Shown one piece after another: positions 43,373-62,207 of a stretch of DNA of 64,000 nucleotides. The stretch is from Eubacteriales bacterium (GTDB lineage: Bacteria > Bacillota > Clostridia > Oscillospirales > CAG-272), in assembly GCA_045128515.1 (NCBI GenBank), contig JBGVRO010000010.1, positions 4,489-68,488 on the forward strand, read 5' to 3'. The position numbers and the translations under genes are program-made. The stretch's first letter is position 1; the number at the start of each line of letters is the position of its first letter. The notes below the pieces were generated by a model that saw only the letters and a list, made by a program, of their open reading frames with translations, did not search any database and was not told where the DNA came from.

Positions 43373-43981
43373 ATGTTCGGTAGCATAAAGGAAGTATGGG
43401 GCGGTGAGATGAAGAAGATCACAATGTCTATTATGATAATTTTTCTTTGCCTTACGTCTGTTGTCGGCGTTACTTGGGCGTTGTTTACACACAGCAACGA
43501 CGGCAAGATCGGTATAAATACAACCAGCGGCTATATTGACATGGATATCGTTGATACGAATGGGGACTCACTTGTTGATAAGGTTCTTGAATTTGAATCC
43601 GGTGTCGACAACAGAGAAACGATTTACTTTGAACCTGGCGCAACCTTCCATACCCAGGGCTTTAAGGTTGTGAACAACGGTAATATAAATGTTAATTACC
43701 GTGTTTACATCAGTAACGATGAGACTGAAAACATGGAGTCATTCAACAAGGCGTTCGAGCTTTGGATCTGCGAGGATCTGAGCAAGATAAACGAGGCGAA
43801 GAAGATAACCGAGTTTGAGGGAACTCTCGGTCCTGAGGAAAGCGGCAAGGTTTACTATCTTGTAATCAGGATGAAGGAAAGCGCAGGCAATGAATTCCAA
43901 AACAAGGTTTACAGCGGTATCGGAATAACCGTGTACGCAGTACAGGGTAACGTTAATATAAACAGCATTCCGCACGATTAA
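43373..43981 (+). CDS. TasA/camelysin-like small subunit with a SipW-class signal peptide
   Basis: ..IIFLCLTSVVGVTWALFTHSNDG...TSGYIDMDI, and the domain-closing motif AGNEFQNKVYSGIGITVYAVQ. RBS ggaggtga. Confidence 0.8.
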   Translation: MFGSIKEVWGGEMKKITMSIMIIFLCLTSVVGVTWALFTHSNDGKIGINTTSGYIDMDIVDTNGDSLVDKVLEFESGVDNRETIYFEPGATFHTQGFKVVNNGNINVNYRVYISNDETENMESFNKAFELWICEDLSKINEAKKITEFEGTLGPEESGKVYYLVIRMKESAGNEFQNKVYSGIGITVYAVQGNVNINSIPHD

Positions 43982-43990
43982 GGAGTTTGT

Positions 43991-58841: not shown

Positions 58842-61800
58842 TTATTGATGGTTATAATTCTGAGTTACACCAGCTTCTGTGATGGTGGTTGTTACACCAA
58901 CTACGATTTTAATAACACCGGGAGTGCTATCTCTATCTACGTAAATACCATCGTATTTTGCAAATGACTGATATTCACCATTAATCTCAAAGCCGAAAAT
59001 TTTATCTTTATCGCTTGTGGGATAATGGATTTCAAAGGTAAGACCGGCTTCAAGTACAAGTGTGCCGCCTGATCCAACACTGAATAAGTAAACAGCTTGC
59101 TTTACGTCCTTGAAATTAATAACCATAGTTCCGTTGCCATTAATACCGCCGGAAATAGTGAGCTTACCACCGTCACTAATGTCAAATACGTGCCAGGACT
59201 TGTTCGCATTGTGGTCGAAGGTGCAGGTTAATTCATAGGAGTTAATGTTAAGTCGGCTAATAGTTGGTTGATTATTTTCTCCTTTATTAATCTCGCAGAA
59301 ATTATGCTTATTTCCGGAGATAGACAGATCATTCTTACCGCTTCCTGTAATATCTGCGCCCATGATTACACTTTTACCATTTTCAAGATACTCAAAGAGC
59401 TTTGCGGCAGTCATATTTTCATCAGAAACTATATGTTCTTGGTTTGCAACTTCGTAAACAGGCTTGATTGTAACGTCTGCGGTTATATTCTTAAGCTTAT
59501 CCTGCCAGCCCGGCTCCCAAGTGCCTACGTAGCCTTCAATTTCAGGAACTTCGGGAGTGAAGGAAAGTCCCTGGTTGCTACTTGTCCAAGCTTCGCTGTA
59601 AACGACCTTGCCGTTTATATCAACAAATCTGATGATATAAGGATTCTCCCAGGACTCGTAAAGGATGACGTCCTTATAGTTTCCTGCGGGAATAGTATCG
59701 GTCTTTACAGAGTTAGAATTCATCCATCCGACGAACTTTTTACCCTCGTTCGTTGTGAGAGCACCGGTCTTTACTGTGTGCGCATTCGCCCAAAGCTTGT
59801 TTTCGCTTCTTTCACCGGCCGTTACGTATTCGGTAGCGAGGACGGTATCGCCCTTACCGTCCATATATGTTACGGTGTAGAAATACTTGATTACCTCAAC
59901 GCCTTCGGCAGACTTAACAGGGCTCGAGCCCCATCCGTAGCCGGTATAAAGCTGATCAAAGGGCAGATATGTGCCCATCTTATCCTCATTTGCGGTGTGC
60001 TTATGTCTGCAAGGGCTAAGGTTCTGTGTGTTGTAGGGGAGATTGGTTGCGGGATCAATATTGATCTCGTTCTTTTCTACTCTGCTGAACTGGAAGTCTG
60101 TTGTATAAGAGCCAACGGTATTCTTCTCAAACTCGCAGTAATAGTAGTCTGCCCAGTTGCCTATGTAAACCTTTACGTTAGAGAAATTAACCTTCTCGCC
60201 GCCGGTGAGAGGATTGGTATCGCCGCCGACAGTACCAACAAGCATACCTGCATAACGGTACTGATAGTACTGATAGTTACCGCAAACGTCGTTGTAAACG
60301 TCGATAACTGCACCTACGGTACAGTTCGTCATATTGACGGTAGTATCACCGTTAACTCTACCGAGAATGCCTCCGCATCCTACGTCCCATGAGCCCCAAA
60401 GAGCAGAGATTTTGTTAGACACGCCTACTTCAATGTTGTTGAAGTTGATTGTAGCTGTGCTACCCGACTGGTTATAAGCATAGCCTACAACACCGCCGTT
60501 AGGCACGTTGTATGCTCTGGGATTGGAGTTGACAATCTTAATATTATCAAAGGTAGATGTACCCGAAGCATAAGCCGCAACGCATCCGGTGGTGGAGAAT
60601 TCACCGTCGGACTGGAAGTTGTTAACAACGAGGTTCTTAACCGTGCCGTTGTAAACAAAGCCGAAGATTCCCATACCGTCGTTGTAATACTGCTCGTTGG
60701 GAAGGGAATAGTGAGGGTCATCTCCCTTGATATCCCATGTTCTCTGAAGGATATTGGAAATCGTATGATTCTGACCGTCGAATATGCCTTCGAAGGAATA
60801 AACGTTAGATGAAATATCCTCTTTACTCTCGTTAGGAATGCCGTTTTTATTGTTATCATCGGTAAAACGGTATCCAACAGGAGTGAAGATCTTGTTGTTT
60901 TCGCTACCCAAATTGAGATCTGCGTCAAGCTTTACGGTCTTGCCTTCAAAGGTATCCCAAATTTCGTTTCCATTCGCATCCTTTGCCATACCGCCAACGA
61001 TAGCGGCAAAGCCTGCAAACTGATCTTCATTAGTAAGTGTGAACTCGGTATCGGTGGTATTATACCAAGAGATATCAACTCCACCTGCCCAAGGATCTCC
61101 TGCGGCAACAACCGCAGTAACCTCGGAGAAGGACGCAAGTGCAATGCTAACCTCACCGGTTGCGGAATTATAGCTGAAATCGTTGTGAAGCGCAGGGGTG
61201 TCAACAAGATTCATCTTGTTTGCAACACCGTCCTCAACGTGATAGAGGGAGATGTTTGCTTCCTTATAGCCAACAGGAAGAACCGCACCGAGATCAATAA
61301 TCATAGGAACGGTGTTATCCTCCGAAATACCGTCAATATGTACGTCAAGGCTTCGAGAACCCTCGCCCATAGTCATATCAATGTTAGAAGAACGCTCGGT
61401 GTTACCTACGCTAAGGGTAAGCTCGGTTGTACCTTCCGCAATCTTAACTCCGGCTGGAATAGTTGCATTTACGCTACCCTGAATGGTCATAGGCTGAGTG
61501 AGGTTGTTATTACCGTCCACCTCGCCAACAGGAACGCTAACCTTTGTATTGTCAAAGTCGGGGAAGGTTGCATCCTTGTCATAATCATCGCCAAAGCTAT
61601 CGAACTCACCAACGTCCTGTGTTGCAAGGAGCTTAAGAGCGAAGCCGTTCTCGCAGAGGGACTTGCCCTGATAGTCGTTGCCTGCAAGCTCATCCATATG
61701 GAATGCGATTGCAAGGATCTGACATGTGTCGGGAGCAAGGCTGCCTGCCTCACCGCTGTTGCTTGCAAGAACCTCGGTAAGAGTACCTGCAGGAGTAAGG

Positions 61801-62207
61801 CTCTTAAGACCCTCCTTAGTAAGCTCGGTAGCTACAGGGTTAACGTAATAAACGTCGATTACGTCGGAAAGATCGGTAACCTTACCCTCTGCCTCAATAG
61901 AGAGCTTCCACTTAAAGTTAAGGGTGCCACTGTTAGATACCTTTACGTATCTGATCTCGGTATAACCGGGCTCCCAGTTTTTGTAGTTAAATACGGATGT
62001 GCCGTCTGCGTTATTCCACTCGTCAGAATCGGCTGCAAGAAGCTTGTCGGACCAATGCATTTCTGCGCTGAGCTTACCCGACTGAATAATGTTGCCATTG
62101 CTTGTTACACTGTCGGTAAACCATGCGAAGGTTGTTCCGAGCAAAGCGGACAGTGTCATTACTAACGCAAGCACGCTGCACATTACCTGCTTAAATGTGT
62201 TTTTCAT
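58842..62207 (-). CDS. TasA-like-domain protein (1121 aa), an inverted paralog of the first ~840 aa of the 1964-aa protein, with C-terminal Listeria-Bacteroides repeats
   Basis: Signal ..LALVMTLSALLGTTFAWFTDSVTSNGNIIQSGKLSA. The stretch NFKWKLSIEAEGKVTDLSDVIDVYYVNPV is identical to one in the 47401 gene. FEGIFDGQNHTISN is GLUG-type. The repeat is FVGWMNS....TIPAGNYKDVILYESW. Confidence 0.82.
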   Translation of the reverse strand: MKNTFKQVMCSVLALVMTLSALLGTTFAWFTDSVTSNGNIIQSGKLSAEMHWSDKLLAADSDEWNNADGTSVFNYKNWEPGYTEIRYVKVSNSGTLNFKWKLSIEAEGKVTDLSDVIDVYYVNPVATELTKEGLKSLTPAGTLTEVLASNSGEAGSLAPDTCQILAIAFHMDELAGNDYQGKSLCENGFALKLLATQDVGEFDSFGDDYDKDATFPDFDNTKVSVPVGEVDGNNNLTQPMTIQGSVNATIPAGVKIAEGTTELTLSVGNTERSSNIDMTMGEGSRSLDVHIDGISEDNTVPMIIDLGAVLPVGYKEANISLYHVEDGVANKMNLVDTPALHNDFSYNSATGEVSIALASFSEVTAVVAAGDPWAGGVDISWYNTTDTEFTLTNEDQFAGFAAIVGGMAKDANGNEIWDTFEGKTVKLDADLNLGSENNKIFTPVGYRFTDDNNKNGIPNESKEDISSNVYSFEGIFDGQNHTISNILQRTWDIKGDDPHYSLPNEQYYNDGMGIFGFVYNGTVKNLVVNNFQSDGEFSTTGCVAAYASGTSTFDNIKIVNSNPRAYNVPNGGVVGYAYNQSGSTATINFNNIEVGVSNKISALWGSWDVGCGGILGRVNGDTTVNMTNCTVGAVIDVYNDVCGNYQYYQYRYAGMLVGTVGGDTNPLTGGEKVNFSNVKVYIGNWADYYYCEFEKNTVGSYTTDFQFSRVEKNEINIDPATNLPYNTQNLSPCRHKHTANEDKMGTYLPFDQLYTGYGWGSSPVKSAEGVEVIKYFYTVTYMDGKGDTVLATEYVTAGERSENKLWANAHTVKTGALTTNEGKKFVGWMNSNSVKTDTIPAGNYKDVILYESWENPYIIRFVDINGKVVYSEAWTSSNQGLSFTPEVPEIEGYVGTWEPGWQDKLKNITADVTIKPVYEVANQEHIVSDENMTAAKLFEYLENGKSVIMGADITGSGKNDLSISGNKHNFCEINKGENNQPTISRLNINSYELTCTFDHNANKSWHVFDISDGGKLTISGGINGNGTMVINFKDVKQAVYLFSVGSGGTLVLEAGLTFEIHYPTSDKDKIFGFEINGEYQSFAKYDGIYVDRDSTPGVIKIVVGVTTTITEAGVTQNYNHQ

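Follow-up and report, generated by a model that had tools for sequence, protein, structure and literature searches.

Overall, our analysis of a 64-kb stretch of DNA from a Eubacteriales bacterium (the whole stretch is called the window below) centered on an 11-gene locus at positions 43373-62207. On balance, we favor the reading that this locus encodes a conserved, sortase-independent and SipW-dependent surface fiber of the TasA type, which displays large passengers in uncultured gut Clostridia. TasA-type donor-strand fibers are known as simple matrix scaffolds of approximately 25-kDa subunits. Together with its thousands of gut and rumen relatives among the Clostridia, the locus suggests that TasA chemistry can be a general platform for the display of very large, exchangeable adhesin-like modules. 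The evidence lies in an N-terminal module that recurs in short and giant proteins alike, in the two signal peptidases encoded among them, and in the recurrence of the gene set in other genomes. The genes, with two segments of g4 that are discussed separately, are as follows (lengths in amino acids, aa; the vertical bar in a motif marks the predicted cleavage site).

43373-43981, plus strand: g1, 202 aa; short TasA-like subunit of donor-strand class A|LFT
43991-45202, plus strand: SipW1, S26B signal peptidase with a K/A/E-rich repeat tail
45279-47252, plus strand: g3, 657 aa; TasA-like N-domain of ~215 aa and passenger of ~430 aa; class A|WFT
47401-53295, plus strand: g4, 1964 aa; TasA-like N-domain, passenger of ~1500 aa, Hint domain and helical tail; class A|WFT
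52594-53037, plus strand: Hint domain of g4, resembling inteins, hedgehog and bacterial intein-like (BIL) domains; Cys1 is C1732
53044-53268, plus strand: helical tail of g4, after the Hint domain; YGLYTY...KGxxT
53396-53920, plus strand: g5, 174 aa; putatively TapA-like, with N-terminal extension, signal peptide, A|WFT strand and small non-TasA domain
53986-54447, plus strand: g6, 153 aa; predicted N-terminal membrane helix and C-terminal two-thirds of a TasA-like domain
54455-55249, plus strand: SipW2, second S26B signal peptidase, with the canonical GDN
55250-55822, plus strand: g8, 190 aa; predicted membrane helix, (PE)n linker and uL15-like domain
55879-56544, plus strand: g9, ~221 aa; short TasA-like subunit, class A|LFT
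56666-58648, plus strand: g10, 660 aa; TasA-like, class A|LFT, fused to a passenger of ~435 aa
62207-58842, minus strand: g11, 1121 aa; TasA-like N-domain and a passenger in common with g4; class A|WFT

N-terminal modules, passengers and distribution

A first-pass annotation of this DNA, made from the sequence alone, had drawn attention to seven open reading frames (ORFs) with a common and unusual N-terminus, and all seven exist with the positions and lengths listed above. The pattern [GASV][TSAV][TS][FYW][AS][WL]FT has exactly seven matches in the six-frame translation of the 64-kb window and none in 50 shuffles, and every copy is N-terminal and follows a hydrophobic helix (g1, g3, g4, g5, g9, g10 and g11). 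This sequence observation holds up and lies far outside what chance would give. Its attribution to SipW/TasA-type signal peptides was borne out by TIGR04088, the model of the SipW-cognate signal peptide (cut-off 19 bits), which g11 (27.4 bits) and g3 (22.7 bits) passed; g10 fell just below (17.1 bits), and the remaining motif-bearing proteins were unreported at E<=0.01. Directly after the predicted cleavage site, 42 of 43 proteins of the g1, g9 and g10 families have L and 154 of 158 proteins of the g3, g11, g4 and g5 families have W; the donor strands fall into two conserved classes, A|LFT and A|WFT. Judged by eye, the locus motif A|WFTDSVTS..N.I..G.LD presumably resembles the start of mature TasA. 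The donor strand of the locus modules has a conserved Asn, and their WEPGY motif has an invariant Glu; these residues could conceivably take part in a BsaA-like isopeptide triad. In TasA itself, the donor strand comprises residues 28-38, directly after the SipW cleavage site (PMC9674648). The closing motif AGNE(Y/F)Q...A(T/V)Q, described earlier as mostly shared among the N-terminal domains, was seen in g1, g3, g4, g10 and g11; it is poorly kept in g9, degenerate in g6 (VGNEIKG) and missing from g5.

Beyond the signal peptide, the Pfam model Peptidase_M73 (PF12389; cut-off 22.5 bits) matches g3 over the full domain (40.5 bits, E=3.5e-10, residues 8-207) and is also above its cut-off in g11 (31.4 bits), g10 (29.1 bits) and g9 (24.9 bits). 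The match to g4 is below the cut-off (20.9 bits), and there was no Peptidase_M73 match for g1, g5 or g6. All 74 relatives that we scanned match this model, and the donor-strand motif and the jelly-roll core are almost invariant across these diverse proteins. Local profile-profile comparison with hhalign showed g1, g9, g10 and the g3 N-domain to be homologous over ~175-190 columns at 98-99.6% probability. Within this set, g9 aligned with the g3 N-domain and with g10 at 99.4-99.6% over ~187 columns, and g1 showed full-domain homology to the g3 N-domain, g9 and g10 at 98-99.5%. The N-domain of g4 is joined to that of g3 by 41% identity over the first ~240 aa.

Searches of PDB sequences with full-length g4 and with a 72-sequence full-length profile returned no TasA match and no homologue of a passenger, and fold-level evidence was therefore needed. 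Residues 1-226 of g11 were modeled by AlphaFold from a 72-sequence alignment, with a predicted local distance difference test score (pLDDT) of 80.9 and a predicted template modeling score (pTM) of 0.65. The model consists of the signal helix, residues 25-41 at pLDDT <50, and then a beta-sandwich; the putative donor strand is modeled as unstructured. Foldseek comparison of this N-domain with 350,542 PDB chains placed the AbpA pilin of the archaeon Pyrobaculum first (7ueg, E=2e-4) and the TasA fiber second (8aur, E=3.3e-4, 215 columns), these being the two fiber structures of the TasA superfamily; chaperone-usher pilin domains, including those of PapG and FimF, came next. We conclude that one set of homologous jelly-roll modules, which belong to the TasA superfamily, is found in g1, g9 and g10 and in the first ~215 aa of g3, g4 and g11.

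The lengths of the four large members (657, 660, 1121 and 1964 aa for g3, g10, g11 and g4) were confirmed, and cross-BLAST separated what follows their N-domains. A passenger stretch of ~600 aa is common to g4 and g11 only, and these two proteins are 47.5% identical over 856 alignment columns (g11 residues 1-760); the passengers of g3 and g10 showed no similarity to each other or to g4 and g11. The four proteins g3, g4, g11 and, in this genome, g10 carry three mutually unrelated large passengers. No internal repeats were found in the passengers by self-BLAST. In Pfam scans at E<=1, nothing in the passenger segments was above threshold, the sub-threshold matches including Flg_new (E=0.022) and DUF3737 (E=0.0015), and the g3 passenger had neither a Pfam match nor a PDB sequence homologue. 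Among the 74 scanned relatives, the passengers include Beta_helix (9), LRR_5/BspA (4), Glug (3), Peptidase_M26_N (2) and a pectate-lyase-like adhesive domain (2). Therefore, the beta-helix, GLUG, Ig-like and Listeria-Bacteroides repeat labels that the first-pass annotation attached to the passengers remained sub-threshold in the window, and such labels rest on the relatives, in which Beta_helix and Glug do occur.

In one relative, a passenger stands on another fiber module. The protein P0083 (L081 2350-5421, 1023 aa) is 49% identical at residues 142-896 to residues 227-957 of g11, and it begins with a canonical type IV prepilin module (G|FTLVE) where g11 has the TasA-like module. The occurrence of the g11 passenger on a type IV pilin module fits a role of the N-domain in incorporation into fibers. 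We considered a type IV pilus context for this gene and rejected it, since no type IV pilus operon surrounds the gene.

A profile search with the N-domain against a representative protein library clustered at 50% identity (E<=1e-3) matched 6850 protein clusters. Of the top 146 matches, 137 are at least 400 aa long; the median length is 677 aa, and the longest protein measures 2495 aa. The fusion of a TasA-like domain to a giant passenger, singled out earlier as unusual, is thus confirmed, but it extends well beyond this genome and is the usual architecture in a very large family of metagenomic proteins. Scanning one genome per GTDB species gave 77 loci, all from uncultured gut or rumen Clostridia (Eubacteriales, Oscillospiraceae, Christensenellaceae and others), and no cultured carrier was found among the best 80 loci or in the lists of g1 and g11 homologues.

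The recurring gene set consists of two modules, A (g6-SipW2-g8 slot-g9-g10) and B (g1-SipW1-g3-(g11)-g4-g5). Of the 77 loci, 14 contain both modules, all in metagenome-assembled genomes (MAGs) of gut or rumen Clostridia, and the gene set recurs in at least 15 MAGs at species level. One MAG, L002, is fully syntenic with the window, inverted g11 included. Module A precedes module B in most genomes; the order is B then A in the window, L002 and L067. The g1 family comprises 589 clusters, all of 189-214 aa and never fused, and g1 always adjoins SipW1. The orthologues of g10 are mostly 190-235 aa long, reach 472-497 aa in five loci and measure 185 aa in L002, compared with 660 aa in the window, and the g3 orthologue in L002 has 441 aa compared with 657 aa. 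This variation in length on the same N-module indicates that passengers are gained and lost while the N-module stays constant. The multi-paralogue, dual-SipW locus is a conserved system.

Signal peptidases and accessory members

Both signal peptidases that had been reported as interleaved with the TasA-like genes match SipW/archaeal-type S26B models. SipW1 passes TIGR02228 (56 bits, cut-off 51.85) and matches NF046067 with E=1.3e-23; SipW2 is below the TIGR02228 cut-off (39 bits) and matches NF046067 with E=2.7e-14. The two enzymes form distinct orthologous groups, and the catalytic Ser (xSM) and His (THxI) are conserved across the orthologues of each. At the place where the SipW2 family conserves GDN, which we take to be present in B. 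subtilis SipW as well, the SipW1 family has GTNT throughout, and this substitution may reflect altered catalysis or specificity. A 129-nt tandem repeat of 2.1 copies lies inside SipW1 (44891-45155) and encodes its Lys/Ala/Glu-rich tail; owing to this tail, SipW1 has 403 aa, and most orthologues have 230-310 aa.

The claim that the locus has neither an LPXTG signal nor a sortase agreed with a regular-expression scan of the window ORFs, which gave no match to the TLxTC signature of sortases, to a C-terminal LPXTG or to a prepilin N-terminus. A regular-expression check of 266 relatives likewise found no LPXTG, and domain scans of the 74 relatives found no SLH, LPXTG/Gram_pos_anchor or cell-wall-binding domain.

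Two members depart from the shared module. Comparison of g5 with g1, g9 and the g3 N-domain aligned only ~50 columns, which cover the signal peptide and donor strand, whereas the alignment with g10 reached ~144 columns (hhalign 95-98% in both cases). The AGNEYQ motif is missing from g5, and the body is a different small domain that ends in WGxxS. With a TasA-type donor strand on a non-TasA body, g5 is putatively TapA-like; TapA is the accessory protein of B. subtilis that has only the donor strand. The orthologue of g5 in L029 (19129-20508, plus strand) has a LysM domain (Pfam E=1.3e-7) and a long linker of TETPEV repeats, and the orthologues in L042, L069, L055, L028 and L071 have Thr/Pro/Glu-rich tails. 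The g5 family also has a conserved extension of ~25-35 aa, (T/S)DKAFxR, before the signal-peptide helix (53396-53500 in the window), which is unusual for a signal peptide.

The g6 protein appears to keep the acceptor part of the fold. Its alignment (hhalign 87-91%) is confined to the last ~100-110 columns of the g3 N-domain, g9 and g10, and the SipW/donor-strand motif occurs in none of 13 members of the g6 family. The ORF at 53986 had been listed as a divergent member of the TasA-like set; its degenerate closing motif and partial TasA-like domain agree with this, but the shared N-terminal motif does not extend to it. From its sequence, g6 is predicted to be a membrane helix joined to the acceptor part of the fold, with neither a cleavage motif nor a donor-strand motif, which makes it a candidate terminator and membrane anchor.

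The g8 protein carries a uL15-like domain (Pfam PF00828, E=7e-14; PDB L15, E=3.2e-8) that does not reach the cut-off of the rplO equivalog model TIGR01071 (46.2 bits, cut-off 77.95) and matches it with the C-terminal half only. We read this domain as a putative uL15 paralogue on a membrane-tethered protein and not as the rplO equivalog. The RKK after the predicted helix suggests that the domain faces the cytoplasm, and the (PE)n linker is encoded by a CCTGAG tandem repeat (55406-55462). The slot between SipW2 and g9 is conserved, and elsewhere it holds a membrane helix and an acidic linker with other, unannotated domains. One such alternative domain, 'RYEEYKVG...', had no Pfam, NCBIfam or PDB match.

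Fiber assembly, the Hint domain and known systems

After analyzing these data, we provide a putative assembly mechanism. We infer that the locus subunits polymerize, possibly into heteropolymers. The subunits would be exported by Sec and held in the membrane by their signal peptides; donor-strand exchange would then join each subunit to the next, and SipW cleavage would release it. This scheme follows the model proposed for Clostridium perfringens BsaA, in which the growing oligomer inserts its free donor strand into a new, membrane-held subunit before SipW cleaves (PMC11580942). Growth at the base in that model places the subunits incorporated first at the distal end of the fiber. The short A|LFT subunits (g1, g9 and, in most genomes, g10) are candidates for the shaft, and the A|WFT subunits (g3, g4, g11 and g5) may be initiators or tip-proximal minor subunits that show adhesin-like passengers. 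The apparently uncleavable g6 would accept the last donor strand and thereby terminate the fiber and anchor it in the membrane.

Several points weigh against this reading. Most Peptidase_M73 matches span only the N-terminal signal/donor-strand region, and the Foldseek TM-scores to TasA and AbpA are modest (0.34-0.41). Moreover, a profile of the g3, g4 and g11 N-domains matches no TasA chain among the PDB sequences, and similarity to TasA outside the signal/donor-strand region is therefore low. The window passengers carry no functional annotation, and passengers of 1000-1700 aa would be sterically demanding on a fiber subunit. The pilin swap is known from one MAG protein, the sole case in the 266 proteins that we inspected. 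Some genes for long homologues stand by themselves, no SipW gene lying closer than 10 kb (L003). The roles proposed for g5 and g6, and the polarity of the fiber, are guesses. The LysM domain on the g5 orthologue could equally mean a position close to the cell. TapA is thought to be wall-associated, and together with that LysM domain this would fit the opposite polarity.

The alternative that retains most force, although we consider it rather unlikely, is that the large proteins are SipW-processed monomeric exoproteins, whether adhesins or enzymes, in which the TasA-like domain serves no purpose beyond export, retention or binding, and that the short subunits alone make any fiber. Monomeric TasA is indeed soluble and self-complemented (PMC9674648), and the Beta_helix, pectate-lyase-like and Peptidase_M26_N regions of the relatives could be enzymatic. 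The long homologues that lie away from any SipW locus point the same way, and in this system polymerization itself is a deduction. However, a donor strand and jelly-roll core that are near-invariant in the 74 relatives would be needless for a mere signal peptide, and the N-module is kept while the passengers are exchanged. The same passenger occurs on a type IV pilin module, which belongs to another fiber subunit, and the long proteins are tightly syntenic with the short, the TapA-like and the acceptor-only members.

Further from our favored reading in probability, and in our view decidedly unlikely, is a released biofilm-matrix scaffold of the TasA/BsaA type in place of a cell-anchored pilus, with the passenger subunits as cross-linkers or substrate binders. 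All characterized bacterial relatives, TasA, CalY and BsaA, are matrix fibers (PMC9674648; PMC13082335; PMC11580942), and no covalent wall anchor was found in the searches described above. On the other hand, g6 keeps a membrane helix with no cleavage motif, one g5 orthologue has a LysM domain, and LRR_5/BspA and Glug passengers are typical of display on the cell surface. This alternative overlaps the display fiber that we favor and differs from it only in the final place of the fiber.

The largest subunit adds a further element to the fiber that we propose. A profile of the g4 Hint domain matched the BIL2 domain 6y75 in the PDB with E=2.3e-6, along with hedgehog proteins and inteins; the Pfam Hint model scored 23.3 bits on g4, below its gathering score of 29.7. 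The AlphaFold model of the domain (pLDDT 87, pTM 0.84) was matched by Foldseek to inteins, Tetrahymena BIL2, hedgehog and a C. thermocellum BIL domain with TM-scores (target) of ~0.8 and E=1e-9. Homologues of g4 with 1700-2215 aa were found in many loci, and the domain is present in most of the homologues longer than 1650 aa; at least 2 of 34 such homologues lack it. In 12 aligned C-termini drawn from that group, Cys1732 and one His are invariant. The tail after the domain (~75 aa) forms helices at residues 163-237 of the modeled segment and is conserved across homologues.

Hint domains of the hedgehog/BIL kind share with g4 the fold, the Cys1 nucleophile, the conserved His and a C-terminal place in a secreted protein, followed by a small region. 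The g4 domain, as known here from its sequence and model, differs from them in that neither the Thr of TxxH nor a C-terminal Asn is evident. With no such Asn evident, splicing is less to be expected than N-terminal cleavage or transfer of the hedgehog or BIL type. After export, the domain would cleave at Cys1732 and thereby either trim g4 or move the C-terminus of the passenger to a nucleophile. To our knowledge, a Hint domain at the end of a giant TasA-module protein is a context that has not been described.

Hint domains also precede C-terminal toxins in polymorphic toxin systems such as MafB and contact-dependent inhibition (CDI), and the ~80-aa tail behind the g4 domain would suit a delivery protein of that kind, from which Hint releases a C-terminal effector. 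We rejected this candidate as highly improbable. In the aligned homologues, the tail shows conservation in place of polymorphism; it forms a small helical bundle and matches no toxin family, no C-terminal Asn or nucleophile junction is apparent, and the downstream g5 is a secreted subunit and not an immunity protein.

Taken jointly, the parts could form an ordered modular pilus that needs neither chaperone nor sortase. In this arrangement, g5 and the giant A|WFT subunits would enter first, the A|LFT subunits would build the shaft, and g6 would terminate and anchor it. The two SipWs would gate the steps, a Hint thioester would couple the passenger covalently to a target or to the envelope, and g8 would couple translation of the giants to the export site. 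We speculate along these lines but consider the scheme unlikely to hold as a whole.

Several known systems share elements with the locus. The tapA-sipW-tasA operon of B. subtilis and the sipW-tasA-calY genes of B. cereus, with CapP, likewise combine an S26B SipW, a SipW-type signal peptide, an N-terminal donor strand and a jelly-roll subunit (PMC9674648; PMC10151520; PMC13082335), and TasA/CalY heterofilaments are documented (PMC13082335). However, these loci have ~3-4 genes, subunits of 200-260 aa, no passengers and one SipW, and they contain neither an acceptor-only member with a membrane helix nor a Hint domain. The identity of the window proteins to TasA and CalY is mostly confined to the signal/donor-strand region.

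The C. perfringens sipW-bsaA-bsaB-bsaC operon is likewise a clostridial SipW/TasA operon with several paralogues and a large co-encoded protein, the 70-kDa von Willebrand factor A (vWA) protein BsaC. The available part of that report describes BsaC as a vWA protein with a predicted signal sequence and not as a TasA-module fusion. It further describes BsaA oligomers locked by an N-E-K isopeptide bond and, unlike the locus here, a bsaB that in many strains has an LPXTG signal and an adjacent sortase gene. Its authors raise the idea that multi-paralogue operons may make heteropolymers (PMC11580942).

Outside the TasA/CalY/BsaA group, the archaeal AbpA is the best structural match of the g11 N-domain. 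For AbpB, the proposed role is that of a TapA-like initiator, with distal domains that might serve as an adhesin in the manner of FimH (PMC9245690). However, the AbpA/AbpB pili have no dedicated signal peptidase, AbpB has ~410 aa, and no family of giant fusions is described for them.

Two further pilus types offer the closest analogies in function. FimH and PapG of chaperone-usher pili are likewise fiber modules fused to a passenger, and specialized first and last subunits such as PapH set the order of assembly and the anchoring. These pili differ in being Gram-negative, in requiring a chaperone and an usher, and in having a C-terminal pilin domain and an adhesin that lacks the donor strand. 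They are evolutionarily unrelated (PMC9674648). The likeness to type IV pilins consists in P0083, with the g11 passenger on a pilin module. Type IV pilins differ in the packing of an N-terminal alpha-helix, the prepilin peptidase and the ATPase-driven machinery. In the modular type IV pilins of Streptococcus sanguinis, PilB and PilC, the pilin module carries a large module that is displayed on the fiber.

The first-pass annotation knew of no earlier description of the display architecture, and this stands in part. In the literature searched, we found no description of TasA modules fused to passengers of 400-1700 aa, or of a dual-SipW two-module locus, an acceptor-only member with a membrane helix, two donor-strand classes or a Hint terminus. 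The ideas of heteropolymers from multi-paralogue operons and of a TapA-like protein that carries adhesin domains have already been voiced (PMC11580942; PMC9245690). If our favored reading is true, the locus would give Gram-positive bacteria an equivalent of tip-adhesin pili that works without sortase and without chaperone-usher machinery, and it would explain how large proteins attach to the surface of abundant uncultured gut Clostridia with no obvious anchors. It would also add a Hint autoprocessing step to a bacterial fiber subunit. The locus offers candidates for initiation (g5), for termination and anchoring (g6) and for the recognition of substrate classes by two SipW paralogues.

Locus layout and neighboring genes

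The ten plus-strand genes from g1 to g10 lie between a promoter-like site and a pair of terminator-like hairpins, and g11 converges on them. The translation start of g9 is a GTG at 55879 with an AAGGAGG ribosome-binding site. The flanking signals are listed below, the promoter-like sites being consensus matches only.

43222-43249, plus strand: promoter-like site 5' of the 10-gene unit; TTAACA-16-TATAAT, 11/12
58718-58837, both strands: convergent terminator-like hairpins between g10 and g11; 14- and 11-bp stems followed by T runs
62386-62414, minus strand: promoter-like site 5' of g11; TTGACA-17-TATATT, 11/12

A search with Rfam found no riboswitch, the cyclic di-GMP class included, in or upstream of the locus. 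Four minus-strand genes lie upstream in the window (38768-43078), namely a trypsin/HtrA-like lipoprotein with a Listeria-Bacteroides repeat (42080-43078), a 499-aa protein with a weak TIR_2 match (40463-41962), a PP2C-like protein (39667-40473) and a 290-aa unannotated ORF (38768-39640). The syntenic MAG L002 also has the trypsin-like gene, together with three upstream genes that are alike in size and orientation. None of the other loci was found to have the trypsin-like gene at its side, and the stretch 38768-43078 is therefore probably not part of the fiber system. Two structured RNAs lie elsewhere in the window, both on the minus strand and outside the locus: a tetrahydrofolate (THF) riboswitch at 7238-7341 (75.8 bits) and a Gut-1 RNA at 17749-17824 (56 bits).

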